Below, piece after piece: positions 2,999 to 52,885 of a stretch of 64,000 bases of DNA. The DNA is taken from contig CAWHWX010000016.1 in assembly GCA_963833125.1 (NCBI GenBank), forward strand, positions 128,001-192,000, written 5' to 3'. Position numbers and translations under genes: made by a program. This DNA comes from Candidatus Bathyarchaeota archaeon. GTDB lineage: Archaea; Thermoproteota; Bathyarchaeia; 40CM-2-53-6. Within the stretch, counting starts at the first letter, position 1. Every line of letters starts with the position of its first letter. Below the pieces are notes generated by a model. The model searched no databases. It was not told the origin of the DNA and was given only the letters and a program-made list of their open reading frames with translations.

Positions 2999-4501
2999 AT
3001 GTCACAACCCCCAGCATACGCACAAACTCCAGCATACGGCCGAGCCTCACAACAAGTTGCACTCAAACAGATCGACAAGTATGTCTGGGAAATTCCAAAA
3101 GACTCTCAACCAGGAATGACGGTACCCGGCAGAATATACGCCGACGACGCACTCATCGGAAAGATGCGAACAGACGCCACACTCCAACAATGCGCCAACG
3201 TCGCAACCCTCCCAGGCCTATACAAATGGGCCATCACAATGCCAGACGGACACGAAGGATACGGGTTTCCGATAGGCGGAGTCGCTGCAAGCGACTACGA
3301 CGAAGGCGTCGTAAGCCCCGGAGGAATCGGTTATGACATAAATTGCGGCGTCAGACTGATCCGAACTAACCTGATGGAGGCGGATGTTCGACCGTTCTTG
3401 GGTAAACTGTTGGATACTATGTTTGTGAATGTTCCGTCGGGTTTGGGAAGTCGTGGGAAGGTTGGAAGGCTTTCACAGGGAGATTTGGAGAAGGTTACGT
3501 GCGAGGGGGTGGAATGGGCCGTTGACCATGGGTACGGTTGGGCTGAGGACCAGAAACACTGTGAAGAGAGTGGTTGTATGGAGACGGCTAACCCGGACAA
3601 GGTTTCGGGGGTTGCAAAGCAACGTGGTGCACCCCAACTCGGAAGCTTGGGGAGCGGGAACCATTTTCTTGAGATCGAGAAAGTCGACAAGATCTTCGAC
3701 CAGCCGGTAGCAGAGAAACTTGGGATTCGGAAAGAAGGCCAAATCCTAGTTTTGGTTCACACCGGTAGCAGGGGGTTCGGATACCAGGTTTGCAGCGATT
3801 ACCTCAGGGTTATGGAACACGCAATTCAGAAATACGGAATCAAGCTGCCCGATAGACAGTTGGCCTGCGCCCCCGCCAAGAGCAATGAGGTTGAAGACTA
3901 CATCGGCGCCATGTCTTGTGCGGCAAATTTCGCTTGGTCAAACAGACAGATGATAACCCACTGGACGAGGGAGTCGTTCGAGAAGACGTTTGGAAAATCG
4001 TCCGACCAGCTCGATATGGGTTTGATCTATGACGTAGCCCACAACATAGCGAAAATTGAGGAACATGCGGTTGATGGGGGAAGGAAGAAAGTTTACGTTC
4101 ACAGGAAGGGCGCGACAAGGGCGTTCCCGCCAGGGCATCAGGCAATACCGCCAGAGTACCGTGACATTGGGCAACCGGTCCTCATCCCCGGAAGCATGGG
4201 CACAGCATCGTGGGTTCTGATCGGGGCACCGAAGTCAATGGAACTCAGTTTCGGAACAACCGCCCACGGGGCGGGGAGGTTCATGAGCCGCACGGCGGCC
4301 AAGAGAAGGAACCCTGCGCGAGCCGTCGAAGATTTGCTCTCTAAGAAGGGGATTATGATCAGAGCGGAAAACATTGGGACCGTGAGCGAGGAGGCCCCCG
4401 AAGCCTACAAGGACGTCGATAGTGTAGCGGAAGTCAGCCACCAACTTGGCATCGCAACCAAAGTCGCCCGCCTAACTCCTATCGGAGTAACCAAAGGTTA
4501 G
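2999..4501 (+). CDS. rtcB: RNA-splicing ligase RtcB
   Basis: MPDGHEGYGFPIGG, DINCGVR, GNHFLE, HRKGAT, HGAGR and EEAPEAYK motifs; no intein. Confidence 0.98.
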   Translation: MSQPPAYAQTPAYGRASQQVALKQIDKYVWEIPKDSQPGMTVPGRIYADDALIGKMRTDATLQQCANVATLPGLYKWAITMPDGHEGYGFPIGGVAASDYDEGVVSPGGIGYDINCGVRLIRTNLMEADVRPFLGKLLDTMFVNVPSGLGSRGKVGRLSQGDLEKVTCEGVEWAVDHGYGWAEDQKHCEESGCMETANPDKVSGVAKQRGAPQLGSLGSGNHFLEIEKVDKIFDQPVAEKLGIRKEGQILVLVHTGSRGFGYQVCSDYLRVMEHAIQKYGIKLPDRQLACAPAKSNEVEDYIGAMSCAANFAWSNRQMITHWTRESFEKTFGKSSDQLDMGLIYDVAHNIAKIEEHAVDGGRKKVYVHRKGATRAFPPGHQAIPPEYRDIGQPVLIPGSMGTASWVLIGAPKSMELSFGTTAHGAGRFMSRTAAKRRNPARAVEDLLSKKGIMIRAENIGTVSEEAPEAYKDVDSVAEVSHQLGIATKVARLTPIGVTKG

Positions 4502-5043
4502 TCCTCGAAGAAGCTTAGCGCTGAACCAGCGTTACGTTTCTTCAAATGCTCAGGAACCTCGCCTTTCGCCATCATTTCCTTGCCACGTCTTAGAATTGGA
4601 TTCTTAGGGCTAAGGGCGAGGGACTTTTTGATCGATTCCGTTGAGGCAATGGCATCCATGTTGAGATATTGGGCCCATGCTAGATTATACCATGCGTATT
4701 CATTCGCCGGGTTAACCCTCGTAGCCTGTTGGAGCACCGCCACCGCTTCGTTCGCCCTTGCGAGATCTATTAATGCCCATCCTTTGCTTGTGAGTGCCAT
4801 ATCGTCGTTAGGGTTTAGCAATAATGCCCGTTCGGCAAACTCCAGAGCCAGCCGTGAGTAGTCCCACTTTTTGTGGAGATTCGCTAGTTTGTTGAGCGAG
4901 TAGGCTTTGAGTGCGATGGCGCGGCTGTTTTCGGGAGATGATTTGATTATGCCATTCAGTTTCAGAATGGCTTCTTCTGTCCTATTCCTACCATAGATCA
5001 GATCGAAAACTTCATCCAGAAGATCTTTGGTGACCAAGAGCAA
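4498..5043 (-). CDS. Tetratricopeptide-repeat protein
   Basis: Repeated AL.LNP.D..A...KG.AL and P.N..AWYNLA TPR patterns. Confidence 0.85.
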   Translation of the reverse strand: MLLVTKDLLDEVFDLIYGRNRTEEAILKLNGIIKSSPENSRAIALKAYSLNKLANLHKKWDYSRLALEFAERALLLNPNDDMALTSKGWALIDLARANEAVAVLQQATRVNPANEYAWYNLAWAQYLNMDAIASTESIKKSLALSPKNPILRRGKEMMAKGEVPEHLKKRNAGSALSFFED

Positions 5044-5259
5044 TCCTACGCGAAAACTAATCAGTTGTTCAGGATATTTGAAGAGTAACAGTTTTCCGGT
5101 TCAAAGCTATCTCCTGCTTTTGTTAGTTTCACACAGATCTTCAGAACCTAAGGTCACCTGTCCTTAGGCAAAAACGCAATAAGGTGCAGAGAGCGTCCTC
5201 TATTGATGAAGCTGAGGTGTAGCAATGGCTCGCTCGATCGAGGCCTCATTGAAGGTTGA

Positions 5260-5985
5260 GTGATGAGCAATGCTTTAGCTCCCGCGATGCGAGAGCTTTT
5301 GAATATTCGAGAAGCTGATCCACACATTCTGGGATTGTACGTGGGGCCTCCTGGGAGTGGGAGGTCGGTGTTATGTAAGCAGATTGCGTATGAGACTCTC
5401 AAGGAGGGACGCCGAGTGATTTACATGTCGACCGAGCGTTCGTCCGCGGAAATATTCGAGCGCATGCAGGAGCATGGATGGAACGTCGAAGGATACCTTC
5501 GATCGAGCCTGAGATTAGTGGATATGTACTCATGGTTGGAGGACGGGAACCAAGCCTACGCCGAAACTCAGTATGGAAGCAGACTTTGCCCATTGAATTT
5601 GACTGATTTACAATTAGCCATTGGGAAACTGTACGAGGAGTTGGGCGCAGGATGGAGTCTCGTAATCTTCGATTCACTGTCGACGTTCGTCAGTACTGTT
5701 GGCGAAGAGAGAGCGCTTAGACTTATCCCGTCCGTCATTGCTAAAGTTAGACAACATGGGTCCGCGGTCGTATCCTTGACCTCGGGCATCCACGCCAACT
5801 CGACACTCGGCCAACTCTACTCTCTATTCGACCTAATTGTGGAGATGAAAATTGAAGCGGGAGAACATTTGGAGCGAATGCTCAGAATAACAAAATACAA
5901 CCTTGGGAGTCACCCCGATAAATGGATCCCCTTCCAGATTCTGGATCAAGGAATAATGTTACAAACTGGTCGCGGAAACAAGTGA
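5260..5985 (+). CDS. KaiC/RAD55-like RecA-superfamily ATPase (Walker A K->R)
   Basis: GPPGSGRS, YMSTE, VIFDSLS and R.LRITKY motifs. Confidence 0.85.
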   Translation: MMSNALAPAMRELLNIREADPHILGLYVGPPGSGRSVLCKQIAYETLKEGRRVIYMSTERSSAEIFERMQEHGWNVEGYLRSSLRLVDMYSWLEDGNQAYAETQYGSRLCPLNLTDLQLAIGKLYEELGAGWSLVIFDSLSTFVSTVGEERALRLIPSVIAKVRQHGSAVVSLTSGIHANSTLGQLYSLFDLIVEMKIEAGEHLERMLRITKYNLGSHPDKWIPFQILDQGIMLQTGRGNK

Positions 5986-6153
5986 GTTGATGGTTACACG
6001 GGATGGAATTATATTTTATTTTTTTGCTCTAACGGCGGCGTTTTGTGACAATTCTACGGATGTAGAACAAAATTGAGCGTTAAACGGTCCTTTGAATCTG
6101 GTTTTCTATTCTTTCCACTTACGTTTTAGTAAGCTGCGGCCCACCGGCCGCGC

Positions 6154-6321
6154 ATGCAAGCAAAGAGGTTTAACGTTCCTCAGCGCCTTGGTGCAGAAAT
6201 AAGGGGCGGCCCACTCTCGCCAAACGAAGGGAAGGGACCGGTAGGGATCTGCACGTGTAACGGCAACCTCCGCCAACCCCAGAGACGAAACGAGATTCTT
6301 GTATGTGCCCGATGCGGCTGA
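6154..6321 (+). CDS. Putative 55-aa zinc-ribbon microprotein (not in ORF track)
   Basis: ATG 6154 to TGA 6321, ending ICTCNGNL...ILVCARCG (CxC...CxxCG). Confidence 0.45.
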   Translation: MQAKRFNVPQRLGAEIRGGPLSPNEGKGPVGICTCNGNLRQPQRRNEILVCARCG

Positions 6322-6436
6322 CGGATTATCGATTAATCAACCAGTTTTGGTGGCCTTCTCGCTCTCAAGACCCGCGCAAGCAACGTATAAGTTCCAATAT
6401 CCGGTTTATCTAAGTTAACTGTGGAGGATTTGTCGG

Positions 6437-6811
6437 TTGGATGTTGAGAAGTTCGCCGCGGAGGCCTTTCGACGTGATAAGGGCATTCGATATGTTGGAA
6501 TCGTGGACAATCAGTTTCACATCCTCCTCTCTAAGATACGCGAGGGAGTAGTGAGTGTAGCGCCCTCGGAGGATGAACGCAATTTCATCCAAGTAATGCC
6601 ACCCATCATCGTCGATGCAGCGGAAAAGCTCCAGCCAATATTAGGCAAATTGGAGTCTGTAACGATGAGATATGAGAAGCTTCTTCTTGTATTCTTCAGG
6701 GTCAGGAGAGTCGTTGTAGCACTTACTTACGCCCCAGACGTCACGACGCCGTTCATTAGTGCATCTTCAGAACTAATGCGAATGCTCGGAACAACCTACC
6801 TCGGCGAATAA
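6437..6811 (+). CDS. Roadblock/profilin-like small protein (DUF6659-like)
   Basis: IRYVGIVD...REG...LGKL....RYEK pattern of this archaeal family, recognised by eye. Confidence 0.65.
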   Translation: MDVEKFAAEAFRRDKGIRYVGIVDNQFHILLSKIREGVVSVAPSEDERNFIQVMPPIIVDAAEKLQPILGKLESVTMRYEKLLLVFFRVRRVVVALTYAPDVTTPFISASSELMRMLGTTYLGE

Positions 6812-6942
6812 ACTCGCCGCTTCAAGAGACTAGGGGTTATTGTTAGCGGGTAGGCTTCGAAATCCGAAGTTTCGCGCCTGCACATGTGAAGGGGTCATTC
6901 TGCAAACCAGTACGTCGAACTTGCCAAACTTGCGGGGCAGTT

Positions 6943-7089
6943 TTGAGGCGACCAGATACACCAATTCTGACGGGCTATCAAATTTATCATAACTACATTC
7001 GTCCACACGAAGCACCTAGATGAAAAGACTCCCGAAGTCGCGGGAATCCAAGTCGGAGGAAAAGACGGATGACGCTAATTCAGAACGCA
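6943..7089 (+). mobile_element. Degenerate 3'-terminal remnant of a DDE (IS6/IS240-like) transposase
   Basis: Reads LRRPDTPILTGYQIYHNYIRPHEA/LDEKTPEVAGIQVGG/MTLIQNA with small indels; homologous to 52120..52257. Confidence 0.8.
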
Positions 7090-7103
7090 AAAAGTAACTC
7101 AGT

Positions 7104-7361
7104 CTAGTTCGGGTTCTCTGTTTTCCGAGGAGTTCTCCAAAATCGGAGGTTGTCCGTTCTTCGTGAGTACCTCCACCAGTACTCCAATTGGATCGTGAGG
7201 ACGAAGAGAGTGAGGACGGTTATCAGGGTGGTTACCTCAGTGAAGTTGGCGATGAATGTTTGCAGGTTTCGTGAGGCAGCGTAGAATGTGACGGCATCTA
7301 TGATGGCGACCACGGAGAGAACGCGCAGGAACAGGCGTTCTTTGCTCGTTAGACCTTTCAT
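7104..7361 (-). CDS. Small two-TM membrane protein, paralog of 51543..51842
   Basis: MKGLTSK..LFLRV N-terminus and WW.Y.RR.DNLRFW C-terminus shared with the 51.5 kb ORF. Confidence 0.75.
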   Translation of the reverse strand: MKGLTSKERLFLRVLSVVAIIDAVTFYAASRNLQTFIANFTEVTTLITVLTLFVLTIQLEYWWRYSRRTDNLRFWRTPRKTENPN

Positions 7362-7364
7362 CGT

Positions 7365-7628
7365 TCAAGCCTTCCTCCGGCTTCTTCGCATGTCAACACA
7401 TATGCCGAGAACCAGTGTGATCAGCACTATAGCAATCACAAACTCGGGCAGAGTCAATGTAATTCTTCCTCCCGCAAATTTCGAATTCCAAGTCCATCCA
7501 TGAACTGCGTACACAACAAGCGTGGAAAGACAAGCAACAAAAGTCAATCCGACACAATACTTTACAATACGCTTGGCGTACGTCGAGAGCCATTTGTCCA
7601 GCCGCTCACTTCTGTCATCACATTTCAC
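7365..7628 (-). CDS. Small two-TM membrane protein
   Basis: Two hydrophobic helices and a basic tail; stop codon lies 3 nt before the next ATG. Confidence 0.6.
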   Translation of the reverse strand: MKCDDRSERLDKWLSTYAKRIVKYCVGLTFVACLSTLVVYAVHGWTWNSKFAGGRITLTLPEFVIAIVLITLVLGICVDMRRSRRKA

Positions 7629-7727
7629 CCACCATCAATGTGCCGCAGTCTCGTTCTTACTGGTTTCCCTGTTTTTCACGAATCGAAACATGGTTCCGTG
7701 TGCAAACGGCTAGAAACGGTAAGATCG

Positions 7728-7750
7728 AATCCCACCAAACGAAAGTAAAC
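7728..7750 (+). repeat. Islet-terminal motif, copy A (AATCCCACCAAACGAAAGTAAAC)
   Basis: 13-nt core CCACCAAACGAAA identical to the reverse complement of 51096..51117; partial second copy CACCAAACGA at 7760..7769. Confidence 0.6.
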
Positions 7751-7778
7751 ATCCCTAAGCACCAAACGACAATGACGA

Positions 7779-7825
7779 GTTACCTTACGTAACAATATTT
7801 ATATCGAACTGTTACTAAAGGTAAC
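7779..7825 (+). promoter_or_regulatory. hsp20 promoter: TATA box flanked by two GTTAC-N5-GTAAC palindromic operators
   Basis: GTTACcttacGTAAC (7779-7793), TATTTATAT (7796-7804), GTTACtaaagGTAAC (7811-7825). Confidence 0.75.
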
Positions 7826-7855
7826 AAACTAGCCTATCAGAGGTGAAGTAAGAAA

Positions 7856-8464
7856 ATGTCTTCAGACGAATTCCTTCCCGAATGGTTTAGGTCCCGAAGA
7901 GGCAGGCAGTCCCCTTTCGGTTGGATGGACCGCTGGTTCGGCGACGTCGATGAGATGTTCGGAAACATGTTCCAGGACATGCTCAAGGGCATGCCAAAGG
8001 ACATGATGACAGAGAGAAAGCTACCTGACGGTTCAACCGTGAAGCAATACGGCCCATTCGTCTACGGGTACTCTATGTCCATCGGACCCGACGGAAAACC
8101 CAACGTACAAGAATTCGGCAACGTAAAACCATCCCGACGCCCAGGCGCATTCGGCATCCAACAACCAGCCTTAGAACCAAAAGAAACACGTGAACCCCTA
8201 GTCGACGTCATCAACGAACAAGCACAAGTGCGCGTAGTGGCAGAACTACCCGGCGTCGAGAAATCAGACATCAAGACTAGCATCAACGAGGACCAATTGA
8301 CGATCAAGGTGGATTCATCGACCCAGAAGTATTACAAGGAAGTCAAACTGCCAACAGGCGTTGACCCCGACAGCTCCAAAGCCTCATACAACAACGGCGT
8401 CCTAGAAATCACTCTACGCAAATTGCAACCTAGACCCAAGGGTAAAGAAATTAAAATCGACTAA
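7856..8464 (+). CDS. hsp20: Archaeal small heat-shock protein Hsp20
   Basis: GPFVYGYSMSIGPDGKP, EPLVDV, AELPGV and ASYNNGVLEI motifs; C-terminal IKID (IxI). Confidence 0.96.
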   Translation: MSSDEFLPEWFRSRRGRQSPFGWMDRWFGDVDEMFGNMFQDMLKGMPKDMMTERKLPDGSTVKQYGPFVYGYSMSIGPDGKPNVQEFGNVKPSRRPGAFGIQQPALEPKETREPLVDVINEQAQVRVVAELPGVEKSDIKTSINEDQLTIKVDSSTQKYYKEVKLPTGVDPDSSKASYNNGVLEITLRKLQPRPKGKEIKID

Positions 8465-8483
8465 ACCTAAAACTCCCTCCGCC

Positions 8484-8500
8484 TTTCTTTTTTCCTTTCT
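8484..8500 (+). terminator. Oligo-T archaeal terminator after hsp20
   Basis: TTTCTTTTTTCCTTTCT about 20 nt after the stop codon. Confidence 0.55.
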
Positions 8501-8514
8501 AATCACGAATTCAC

Positions 8515-8977
8515 CTAGAGCTTAGCGAGGGCGGATTTGACTTCGTCAAAGTTCGGTTGTGTTCCTGGATCCTCAGATATCCACCTGTAACGCACCGTCC
8601 CAGTGGGATCCAGTACGAACACGGATCTTTTCGCTGCCGTATACCCTTTCATTCCGACGAAATCGTTGTGAAAGATGTTCAGTTTCTTAATAGTCTCCCT
8701 CATGTAATCGCTGAGTATCGGAAACTGCAGCTTGTTCGCGTCCGCGAAAGCCTTATTCGTGAACGGATCGTTCACGCTAACCGCAACAACCTGCCCCGGC
8801 AAGCTTGCCAGAGAATCCCTGAATGTGCACATTTCTTTGGTACATACCGCCCGTGAACGCTCCTGGGAAGAACGCCAGGACAATCTTCTTTCCTTGAAAC
8901 TCTTTCAATGATCTTTGCTTCCGGTCTTGATCAGGAAGTTGGAAGTCTAACATCTTTTGACCTACTTCGACTGACAA
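8515..8977 (-). CDS. Peroxiredoxin (AhpE/BCP-like), frameshift near 8848
   Basis: FFPGAFTG-VCTKEMC (PxxxTxxC) restored by removing one G; LSD and AKRSVFV motifs. Confidence 0.9.
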
Positions 8978-9064
8978 ACCTGATTCCTCCTGCGATGGTT
9001 TTTCGGGCTCCCAATTAACCGTTTCTCATCGAGCTTCAACCGATTACGTACAGGACTTTCGCGG

Positions 9065-50985: not shown

Positions 50986-51095
50986 TCAAATTAACTCCTG
51001 ATCGGGATTTCGTCCACAGGCATGAGCGGTTCATTTAAGCATTGTGAGGTCGGGTTCTGGTACCTTAGCGTTTGTTAGATCTGGTCGTCTGCGCT

Positions 51096-51117
51096 GTTAC
51101 TTTTCGTTTGGTGGATT
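51096..51117 (-). repeat. Islet-terminal motif, copy B (AATCCACCAAACGAAAAGTAAC)
   Basis: Matches 7728..7750; continues AACAGCGC, resembling an IS6-type terminal repeat end (AACAGTGCC). Confidence 0.6.
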
Positions 51118-51520
51118 AGTTTGGGGCTTTGCGCCTGATTACGCCGTAGCCAATTATAGCGAAAGTCGCAAGCAAAGTTAGACCGAAGGGGTACTCAGGT
51201 ATCGGTGGAGCGGCTTGAATTGTAAAGTTTATGCAAACATCCTCAATTCCATTAAATGTGCTGTATTGACCCGCCGGTTGTCCGGGAACAGTCAACTGAC
51301 CACTTCCATTGCTGAAATTGCTGAAAATTGGTGCACCGGGACAGCTGAACCCGGAATAAACAGAGATACGAGAAGTGGGTGCAGTAGTGGTGACAGTGAA
51401 AGGGACTCCTGCTGTAGGTGATGATGGGGTTACAGTGAGGGCCCACGCAGGCTTCACACTAACAAACAACAGCCCTACGGCTAGGAGAACGAATAACCCA
51501 ACAAGTCGCCTACCCCACAA
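51116..51520 (-). CDS. Small secreted surface protein with PEF-CTERM-like sorting signal
   Basis: Signal peptide (...PAWA), Ig-like beta-rich body with 2 Cys, then IPEYP + TM helix + RRK. Confidence 0.8.
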   Translation of the reverse strand: MWGRRLVGLFVLLAVGLLFVSVKPAWALTVTPSSPTAGVPFTVTTTAPTSRISVYSGFSCPGAPIFSNFSNGSGQLTVPGQPAGQYSTFNGIEDVCINFTIQAAPPIPEYPFGLTLLATFAIIGYGVIRRKAPN

Positions 51521-51542
51521 TACACAAACCCGGACAACGCGC

Positions 51543-51842
51543 CTATTGCTGAGAATTTAAGAGTTGTCTACCTTTGCGGTTACGTACGCTCTGAATCAGG
51601 GACATGGTTCCCCAAAATCGGAGATTGTCCGCTCTTCGCTGATACTTCCACCAAAAGAGTAGATTCACCGTAAGAGCGAAGAGGGTAATGGCAGTTGAAA
51701 ATACAGCAAATTCGACAAATAGCTGTGGCACAGTTACAACTTGAAGATTCAGGAAGAGGTTGTAGTAAATTGCCGCATTTGCAAGCGTAACTACGAGTAT
51801 TACTCGCAGGAATAGATGTTGCTTGCTCGTTAATCCCTTCAT
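51543..51842 (-). CDS. Small two-TM membrane protein, paralog of 7104..7361
   Basis: MKGLTSKQHLFLRV...WWKYQRRADNLRFW. Confidence 0.75.
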   Translation of the reverse strand: MKGLTSKQHLFLRVILVVTLANAAIYYNLFLNLQVVTVPQLFVEFAVFSTAITLFALTVNLLFWWKYQRRADNLRFWGTMSLIQSVRNRKGRQLLNSQQ

Positions 51843-52119
51843 CCATCTCACACCCTTATCCGTACGTACGTGTCAGCAGGAGTTACGGGTTACCCTGAAT
51901 TCTTAGGATGAAAATTCAAGCCACCCGATAAGTTACCTGTGTACCTCTTTGTTGGAATATCGGACGGTGACCAATCTTTACTCGCTTGGTTTCTGATACA
52001 TTCTTCCGTATGCAAGACAAATACCTCAGCAAGAACACCCCAGCAATTTTCTCTTAAAATAAGAGATGCTTTGTGACGGGAGAGAAACGAATGAAGTTGA
52101 GAGCTGATCGAGTTTGGGT

Positions 52120-52257
52120 CGCGTTCTGAATCAATGTAAGCCACTTGTTCTCACCTTGAACATCAATTCCCGCTAAGTCGACGGGAGTCCTGCCGTCTAA
52201 GCCCATGTGTGGACGAATATAGTTATGGAATATCTGATAGCCTGTTAGGATTGGGTA
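52120..52257 (-). mobile_element. 3'-terminal remnant of a DDE (IS6/IS240-like) transposase overlapping the end of scpB
   Basis: PILTGYQIFHNYIRPHMGLDGRTPVDLAGIDVQGENKWLTLIQNA (YN..RPH..L...TP integrase-core C-terminus). Confidence 0.85.
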
Positions 52258-52885
52258 CTTGCTCTGATTTTGAGATTGGCGCGGGATTTGATGTTTGGTC
52301 TTTCTTTGGTACTCGTTGCATCTTGATGTTGTCGAAGAGGTGTTCAAGTTGCTTCTTCTGAGCCTGGGGCTCTTGGCTTAGGTTGAAGTAATCCGCAAAG
52401 TTTGGAGTCGTGCGAAGAACTTTCGTTCGCCCTAATCTCTCCTCAGAAATCAGGCCTATCTCACGAAGCTGTTTCACGTGCGAGTAGGCTAGGTTGCCGC
52501 GGACTTTGGCGAGATACGATTGTGTAACTGGTTGTCGATAAGCGATGAATGATAGGGTCTTCATTGGGCCTGGTGTGAGCAGCTGCCTTGTGGCGAGGCG
52601 TTTGACATGGCGAACGTACTGGGGTTTGAGTTGCATGACGAACCTTCCGTCGCTTAATTCTAAGACTTCGAGGGCGCTGCCGTCTGCCCCGTACTTGGCC
52701 TTTAGCTGTCGAGCTAGCTCCTTGATTTTGTCTTCTGATCTGAACTCTACGACCGAGCCCAGCGTTTTTAGGTCCAAGGGTTTGCCCGTGACATAGAGCG
52801 CGGCTTCGATTAAAGCGACTTTCGTTCCAGCTTTCGGGATTGAAAGCTTAGGTTCTGGGGTGGGTATGGGTGTGGGTTCAGACAA
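52223..52885 (-). CDS. scpB: Condensin subunit ScpB
   Basis: IEAALY, TLSFIAYRQPVT..., VRG, GR....RTT..F.DYF. Confidence 0.95.
   Translation of the reverse strand: MSEPTPIPTPEPKLSIPKAGTKVALIEAALYVTGKPLDLKTLGSVVEFRSEDKIKELARQLKAKYGADGSALEVLELSDGRFVMQLKPQYVRHVKRLATRQLLTPGPMKTLSFIAYRQPVTQSYLAKVRGNLAYSHVKQLREIGLISEERLGRTKVLRTTPNFADYFNLSQEPQAQKKQLEHLFDNIKMQRVPKKDQTSNPAPISKSEQVPNPNRLSDIP

Follow-up and report, generated by a model that had tools for sequence, protein, structure and literature searches.

A probable fossil of a cargo-carrying IS6-type insertion sequence at an hsp20 insertion hotspot in a Candidatus Bathyarchaeota genome

An islet of small genes lies upstream of hsp20 in a 64,000-nucleotide stretch (the window) of a Candidatus Bathyarchaeota genome. 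The window is contig CAWHWX010000016.1, positions 128,001 to 192,000, or G000:C16:128001-192000 in our numbering, in which G000 is a genome of 3.07 Mb in 39 contigs with an estimated completeness of 87.8% and contamination of 7%. The islet, site A (6943-7784), holds the 3' stub of a transposase gene, two small membrane-protein genes and a short motif, just where a sequence-only reading had placed them. A similar set stands at site B (51059-52254), and a third, site C, elsewhere in the genome. That reading had proposed a one-ended or cassette-like mobile element in which stub and motif are fixed cis sites. From the family of the transposase, the ends of the elements, their target duplications, a hotspot with its empty sites and the variable lengths of the stubs, we conclude otherwise. 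Site A is very probably the right-hand ~840 bp of a dead, cargo-carrying transporter insertion sequence (IS) of the IS6 type, left at an insertion hotspot. Its membrane genes are indeed cargo derived from a mobile element.

To which family does the transposase belong? The window's stub itself has no match in Pfam, and the stubs align only to the 3' end of the gene. Full-length genes were sought in relatives: of 18 sampled genomes in the genus, 16 contain such genes, coding for 370-490 amino acids (aa). Full-length relatives match the Pfam family PF13610 DDE_Tnp_IS240 at 52.9 and 51.4 bits (cutoff 27), and SWIM as well. Their best NCBIfam model is NF033587, transpos_IS6 (E=4.7e-32, profile positions 1-200 of 202). 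The IS6/IS26 assignment made from the stub thus holds. A protein database search returned 5432 homologues at E≤1e-10; the few that bear an organism name belong to Candidatus Bathyarchaeia.

What does the complete element look like? Two 2748-bp copies in G011 are 100% identical, and two 2673-bp copies in G017 are 99.9% identical. In both units other open reading frames (ORFs) flank the transposase gene on either side. The G011 unit carries four passenger ORFs, one resembling a retroviral-type aspartyl protease (161 aa) and three small ones. The 8-bp direct repeats around its copies differ: ATCCCGAG for one, TTACGTAA for the other. Since identical copies lie within different duplications, they moved as whole units with their passengers. 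Passengers inside the repeats of a moved unit are what defines a transporter IS (tIS), and for site A the order of stub, cargo and right inverted repeat (IRR) suggests the same status. Two traits of IS6, 8-bp target duplications and repeats starting with GG (here GGTAAC tips at both ends), are present in elements of the relatives and of G000. A third is absent, as units of 2673 and 2748 bp are not compact 0.7-0.9-kb elements filled by the transposase gene. Of 95 distinct transposase 3' ends, 45 are followed by a recognisable IRR within 3 kb. In complete copies the IRR mostly lies 0.46-1.6 kb past the gene (2.4 kb in one), and the intervening ORFs often have transmembrane (TM) segments, the hydrophobic segments of cargo proteins being called by a simple Kyte-Doolittle scan. 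Three metagenome contigs, each of exactly 2748 nt, encode 83%-identical transposases (P0095-P0097).

Where does such an element end? In the relatives both ends carry one bipartite repeat: a GGTAAC tip, then a ..GTTTGGT box some 10 nt further in, and after another 20-30 nt a second box, ..CGTTTGGT. Read on the reverse strand from 7784, site A shows the same succession of tip, outer box and inner box. The motif of the sequence-only reading is the inner box; it was rightly taken for a cis element of the right end, but it is not terminal. Beyond it lie the second copy of a direct repeat, D6 (CACCAAACGA at 7733-7742 and again at 7760-7769), and, 33 nt past the motif, the true end of the element, GTTACC at 7779-7784, followed by TTACGTAA.

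The 13-mer core of the motif, CCACCAAACGAAA, occurs exactly three times in the 3.07-Mb genome; the reversed pattern, counted there as a control, does not occur at all. All three copies lie 0.64-1.0 kb downstream of a remnant and on its strand, a link beyond chance. The inner-box wording GTTTACTTTCG.. marks one subfamily of the elements, also present in G013, G014, G016, G033 and G006, which is why the 13-mer is rare and always near remnants. Separately, a tRNA or other RNA reading of the motif was rejected: ARAGORN found no tRNA in the window, and Rfam at E≤1 gave nothing in 6000-9000.

The stubs were measured with an nhmmer DNA model of the transposase gene, built from 17 full-length relatives and 1119 positions long. 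Stub A no longer has an open frame: its translation runs to RRPDTPILTGYQIYHNYIRPHEAPR and an in-frame stop, shifts frame once, and then ends in MTLIQNAKSNSV. The stop of the adjoining passenger gene 1 lies 12 nt from the end of the remnant match. For the other end of the element, a search of G000:C16:132000-134943 (window 4000-6943) with an end model gave no left repeat, and no target duplication was seen; at site B, too, left repeat and target duplication were not found. With the left end lost, neither site has a duplication to show. The features are collected in table 1.

Table 1. Coordinates of the remnants, passenger genes and element ends, and of related elements outside the window.
Feature	Position	Strand	Evidence or remark
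Site A: IS6-family transposase 3' remnant, last ~50 codons	6943-7092	+	nhmmer model 959-1112/1119, E=6e-28; translation
Site A: passenger gene 1, 85-aa 2-TM protein, 'MKGLTSK' family	7104-7361	-	ORF; convergent with remnant
Site A: passenger gene 2, 'mem2', 87-aa 2-TM protein	7365-7628	-	ORF; upstream gene in two-gene cargo operon
Site A: leader/upstream block of cargo operon plus inner box	7606-7751	-	blastn A vs C; six-copy alignment
Site A: motif, inner (subterminal) box of IRR	7729-7751	+	same two-box layout in relatives' elements
Site A: outer box and tip of IRR	7752-7784	+	pattern-scan match G000:C16:135784; IRRs of G014 and G033 nearly identical
Site A: TTACGTAA, 8-bp palindromic target copy beside tip	7785-7792	.	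18-genome alignment; inverted repeat I2
Site B: right inverted repeat; degenerate tip GGTACC (51059-51064), weak outer box, inner box (51096-51117)	51059-51118	-	L126 inverted-repeat position 957
Site B: passenger, 134-aa secreted protein, C-terminal IPEYPFGL-TM-RRK tail	51116-51520	-	ORF
Site B: passenger, 'MKGLTSK'-family 2-TM gene	51543-51851	-	co-directional with remnant
Site B: transposase 3' remnant, last ~47 codons, open	52115-52254	-	nhmmer model 976-1115, E=3e-33
Site C: third stub-cargo-motif set	G000:C16:408581-409805		motif core at 409750; outside window
2748-bp element copies of G011	L017:2002-4749 and L018:3969-6716		apparently live
Transposase-less element, 1222 bp, both repeats, two ORFs (107, 223 aa), duplication CAATTGAG	G000:C30:41490-42711		outside window
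Seven ~205-bp miniature inverted-repeat transposable elements (MITEs), GGTAACGTCAA.. tips	G000:C12:129231, C12:151910, C18:132315, C19:51468, C19:174396, C26:6390, C38:6384 (outside window)

Is the position of site A peculiar? An alignment was made of the 150-nt hsp20 upstream regions of 18 genomes in the genus. All 18 loci show a GTTACC tip, an 8-mer, a TATA box and a second palindrome, GTTAC-N5-GGTAAC; the 8-mer is TTACGTAA in seven. An IS-type box stands about 10 nt inside the tip in 16 of the 18, and the boxes come from different repeat subfamilies. A transposase gene or remnant lies no more than 1.5 kb upstream of hsp20 in 12. Among the relatives, empty sites had been proposed as something to look for, and the two loci that lack an IS box, those of G002 and G003, also lack a transposase within 1.5 kb and look empty. 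In ten of ten relatives' loci, the hsp20-side homology to the window has its start at 7727-7779, within the repeat. In the closest relatives, G016 and G032, 7-8 kb of nested IS copies separate a 124-aa ORF from hsp20, and the IS ends within these arrays abut as GTTACC-TTACGTAA-GGTAAC. The octamer thus serves as spacer between abutting ends, and one G011 copy has it as its target duplication.

The element therefore appears to prefer the TTACGTAA palindrome, especially next to a GGTAAC-like sequence. At site A the tip and TTACGTAA together make GTTAC-N5-GTAAC, and in 16 of the 18 genomes half of the upstream palindrome is IS tip. The two palindromes (7779-7825, the second at 7810-7825) flank the TATA box of hsp20 and are kept in all 18 genomes. 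GTTAC-N5-GTAAC is likely, to judge from this conservation, to be the binding site of a regulator, and the pair may serve hsp20 as operators. Insertions here would be tolerated, and would recur, because the IS tip restores the palindrome that flanks the TATA box.

The 124-aa ORF (window 6437-6811) lies just upstream of site A. It had been likened to DUF6659, a likeness not borne out by Pfam, which returned no DUF6659 match at E≤1. The ORF is multi-copy, with nine matches in G000, several beside transposase remnants; further copies lie at G000:C28:128929-129300 and L019:10532-10906. It may itself be IS cargo.

If site A is one insertion, is site B another? The site B unit (51059-52254) appears to be a second, independent insertion of a related element, between scpB and the gene for ribosomal protein S8e, which are adjacent throughout the genus. 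We read and scanned the scpB-S8e spacer of eight relatives, and seven contain no IS signal. In G031 and G017 only 30-70 nt separate the scpB stop from the S8e TATA box, an empty site; in G013, G033, G018, G014 and G004 the spacer is an ORF of ~60 aa with no IS signal. Blastn coordinates put the spacers of nine further loci with both flanks at 100-345 nt, which leaves no room for a unit of 1.14 kb. G016 alone of the eight has insertion B, with an identical IRR junction to the S8e promoter. Its copy keeps only the last ~14 transposase codons (model 1074-1115), after a repeat-like string, and carries a different small membrane ORF. The native scpB stop is retained in G016; in G000 the scpB ORF (52223-52885) lacks it and ends about 10 codons inside stub B, in another frame (52223-52257). 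An 84-aa ORF (51890-52144) in the 260-nt spacer between stub B and cargo has no other match in the genome and none in Pfam, and is probably not a gene. Site C keeps 107 transposase codons and the inner box, the outer part of its repeat having decayed. Farther along the contig, G000:C16:405000-430000 is 25 kb dense in transposase remnants, MKGLTSK copies (C, D) and IPEYP-tail genes; it looks like a second IS array or a variable island.

Are the stubs all cut at the same place? The sequence-only reading had both remnants begin within a few codons of P-I-L, about position 973 of the model, and held that random decay would not be expected to leave the same ~45 codons at A and B. G000 contains 32 nhmmer matches to the transposase gene, none intact. 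Twenty-seven distinct remnants reach the 3' end, and they start at model positions 4, 619, 753, 796, 798, 869, 901, 950, 952, 959 (A), 963, 964, 976 (B), 983, 991, 1008, 1008, 1010, 1020, 1034, 1035, 1041, 1042, 1048, 1053, 1055 and 1058. This is a ragged continuum, denser toward short stubs, with no common breakpoint. A and B start 17 nt apart, but 49 of 351 remnant pairs (14%) lie as close, so that the coincidence alone is not significant. For the orthologous insertion B the start is 976 in G000 but 1074 in G016. Where the cargo is ~94% identical to that of A, the stub measures ~150 nt in G000, ~57 nt in G002:C28 and, judged by eye, ~30 nt in G032:C158. The copy linked to hsp20 in G033 still has 143 transposase codons. 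On the left side, the junction of A and those of its look-alikes (G014, G013) fall at different codons and have no sequence in common. A single sharp breakpoint is thus ruled out, by the spread of starts over 950-1058 and by the differing junctions.

Several observations nevertheless weigh against the reading of site A as a decayed tIS. Short 3' stubs are over-represented: 20 of the 27 start at or beyond model position 950, while G000 has only four internal fragments and no remnant of the 5' part alone. A hand tally of stand-alone matches in relatives finds a cluster of starts at 103-115 of the 160-aa query. No decayed transposase DNA precedes stubs A and B: the 131 nt upstream of stub A score z=0.4 and 0.5 against shuffles, and the DNA upstream of stub B z=-0.03, when a positive control reaches 21.6. 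These same values rule out a pile-up of stub ends at A and B as purely an alignment-edge artefact. The model is only mildly less informative at its 5' side (0.44-0.57 bits per position at 1-400 as against 0.69-0.76 at 901-1100), and this lower detectability explains the excess only in part; simple random decay does not fully predict it. The IS6 model of NCBIfam scores the full-length relatives at 111.3 bits, below its curated cutoff of 125, a shortfall that makes the group a distant branch of the IS6 family. No complete copy of the GTTTACTTTCG subfamily was found, all nine members in hand being truncated, so the position of the cargo in its live form is inferred from other subfamilies. Within the subfamily the orientation of the cargo is mixed, co-directional with the stub in five units and convergent in four (A, C, G014, G013). 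At 87.8% completeness, live copies may be absent from the assembly. Lastly, the hsp20-side end of site A could just as well be the left repeat belonging to an element on the minus strand, with an unrelated stub abutting that element.

How might short stubs accumulate? Cargo lies mostly downstream of the gene, and deletions that kill the IS would be neutral until they reach it. The last 60-170 nt of the transposase gene may also act as terminator or upstream region of the adjoining cargo gene. At site A the stop codons of stub and gene 1 stand a few nucleotides apart, and the reverse strand there is a run of five Ts. A deletion hot spot is another possible source. At least six copies in different genomes lose the reading frame near positions 112-117 of the 160-aa query, which could reflect shared ancestry or a slippery spot.

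Could the stub instead be a functional site, one of two cis sites (with the right-end motif) of a one-ended or cassette-like element that disperses membrane genes with a transposase supplied in trans? This is the proposal of the sequence-only reading, and the bunching of starts speaks for it: eight of the 27 fall in model 950-991 and 12 in 1008-1058, and the tally in relatives points the same way. Units of stub, MKGLTSK gene and IRR also stand in G013 (start at 980) and G014 (start at 975, against 959 in A), in places that are not orthologous, and the 13-mer is found only next to remnants. Yet those look-alikes are joined to their surroundings by unlike sequences at unlike codons, and in orthologous or ~94%-identical units the stub varies from ~150 through ~57 and ~42 to ~30 nt. 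Cargo orientation is not fixed, stub A is interrupted by its stop and frameshift, and neither A nor B has a left end or a target duplication. Complete, two-ended cargo elements with 8-bp duplications exist, moreover. We therefore regard the proposal as very unlikely.

The elements that did move without a transposase of their own tell against it further, for in this genome they have two repeats and 8-bp duplications. One, of 1222 bp, retains both repeats and is directly adjoined by another IS tip. Among the seven MITEs, the three that were read out have duplications GCTGTTAT, GTTAAACA and CATCGGGT; those on C26 and C38 look like one locus assembled twice. We conclude from these two-ended elements and their duplications that a transposase has acted in trans on pairs of repeats in this lineage.

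What is the cargo? The MKGLTSK gene has four copies in G000, all four beside transposase fragments, and many such in relatives; the membrane genes do travel with transposase ends, as had been suggested. Homologues occur in 15 of 23 genomes of the genus. The protein database holds 39, none with a Pfam domain, those with a name being called 'hypothetical protein', and the protein has no match in Pfam, NCBIfam or PADLOC. The only family match of mem2 is a weak one, to a membrane stretch of PADLOC AbiZ (E=5.8e-4). As to what the cargo proteins do, no match in Pfam, NCBIfam or PADLOC passed its threshold, and the ESM Atlas values of 0.84-0.87 are at chance level. The claim that A and B carry the same cargo family stands for the MKGLTSK gene, whose site B protein is 52% identical to that of site A and 86% to the copy at G000:C16:406557. 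It fails for the second gene, which codes for a 2-TM protein at A but at B for a secreted protein with an IPEYP tail. Likewise the components of the two sets agree and their arrangement does not, the MKGLTSK gene being convergent with the stub at A and co-directional at B. The IPEYP tail has ~45 matches across the genome (tblastn), several beside transposase remnants, and the 134-aa protein has no NCBIfam or Pfam match. The label 'PEF-CTERM' suggests itself for this tail; NCBIfam does not confirm it and we have not adopted it. In the GTTTACTTTCG subfamily the cargo is mem2 alone or mem2 with the MKGLTSK gene. An alignment of six copies reveals, whichever way the cargo points, a conserved ~50-nt element some 40 nt ahead of the start codon.

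Do dead copies go on exchanging their cargo? A further explanation holds that the copies are dead as transposons and that their conserved flanks act as homology arms, by which gene conversion or inversion swaps and flips the genes between them. The 146-bp block at 7606-7751 is 97% identical between A and C, although identity falls to 74% in stub and gene 1, the middle cannot be aligned and the last 35 bp are different; against G014 the block is 92% identical and the coding part 73%. The pattern may reflect either conversion among copies or strong constraint, and purifying selection on a promoter or on transposase-binding sites would account for the block equally well. The DNA homologue of mem2 in G033, 91% identical, also lies beside hsp20, and at this orthologous junction its orientation is opposite to that in G000. 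The two copies of insertion B hold different cargo between identical junctions, a difference that deletions or nested insertions could also have made. At G032:C158 traces of the transposase 3' end appear to stand on both sides of the cargo, one detected by nhmmer and the other by eye, unconfirmed by blastn-short. A search for inverted repeats able to flip the cargo gave weak matches of 10-24 nt only. Taken together, these points leave recombination possible, if rather doubtful; it adds to the explanation by a decayed tIS and does not replace it.

A bolder version would make the stub and the bipartite repeat, with its leader, the working flanks of a cargo-exchange system, by which genes for small membrane and surface proteins would be swapped, inverted and dispersed among dozens of sites on promoter palindromes that the tip mimics, as at hsp20. 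Exchange may then proceed by recombination or by transposase in trans, and these archaea would possess a shufflable set of envelope genes. We consider this improbable.

Might the parts of site A be chance neighbours, or an assembly chimera? The 39 contigs and the estimated contamination of 7% give that thought its footing. The same architecture recurs, however, in at least six other genomes of the genus, the motif is found solely beside remnants (control, zero), and the flanks of A and B are collinear with those of relatives. To this alternative we attach almost no credence.

Returning to the decayed tIS, we infer the order of events, together with selection on the cargo, as follows. The live element would have moved as IS6 elements do, its DDE transposase acting on both inverted repeats and leaving 8-bp target duplications. 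It would have landed in TTACGTAA, 11 nt upstream of the TATA box of hsp20, its tip recreating the GTTAC-N5-GTAAC palindrome. Later deletions would have taken the left repeat and most of the transposase gene, and the cargo stayed. At site B a related element would have inserted independently between scpB and the S8e promoter, then decayed in like manner.

What is gained by this account? A proposed new mobile system gives way to an ordinary fossil IS with passengers. The main value lies in the IS group and its homing behaviour rather than in the islet. The group is large and IS6-like, and it differs from the reviewed family in its archaeal zinc-finger transposase, its routine cargo of small membrane or secreted proteins and its two-box ends. 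It homes to an 8-bp palindrome, with the result that IS arrays stand at one promoter in 16 of 18 genomes. It offers a handle on the spread of envelope genes in an uncultured lineage. For annotators, short 'LIQNA' stubs mark old IS cargo.

How do these elements compare with known systems? With the IS6 family they share a DDE transposase of the IS240/IS6 type, a single transposase gene, repeats starting with GG, 8-bp duplications, MITEs and arrays. According to the available part of the IS6 review (Varani et al. 2021, PMC7986276), an 8-bp target duplication is a mark of the family, most members measure 700-890 bp (700-750 bp in the archaeal clades Ai and Aii) and repeats are 14-20 bp long. The elements described here are ~2.7 kb, and their bipartite, two-box repeats of ~60 nt have no counterpart in that part of the review. 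It assigns transposases extended by an N-terminal zinc finger to clades h and i; clade h, like most relatives in databases, is from Clostridia, whereas here the SWIM and Zn-ribbon extension occurs in archaea. Cargo seems to be the rule, and the IS tips strongly prefer TTACGTAA-like sites; the only IS6 member named with a passenger gene in the same part of the review is ISDsp3. Passenger-gene transposons were not detected in archaea according to the available part of a study of thaumarchaeal mobile elements (PMC6563490). In listings of the literature on Bathyarchaeia insertion sequences and on archaeal SWIM/IS6 transposases, we found no description of this IS group.

The closest named kinds are two from ISfinder. 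One is the mobile insertion cassette (MIC), which the transposase-less, two-repeat element at G000:C30:41490-42711 resembles. The other is the tIS, a term quoted from ISfinder in the available part of PMC7986276, and the G011 unit, with passengers inside its repeats, is of this sort. Sites A and B differ from both in having no left repeat, no duplication and no working transposase gene; they are tIS fossils. IS26 translocatable units are alike in the family of the transposase, in cargo linked to IS copies and in insertion beside existing copies, which builds arrays. But a translocatable unit needs one complete IS26, and targeted insertion an active transposase in both partners (PMC7986276, available part), whereas site A has only a broken stub of ~50 codons and no complete IS. 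The arrays differ too, their ends abutting 8 bp apart (GTTACC-TTACGTAA-GGTAAC) in place of the shared-copy structure of IS26. The islet is, then, a known kind of element in an unusual archaeal form: the elements are a distinct variant of IS6, and A and B are its fossils.

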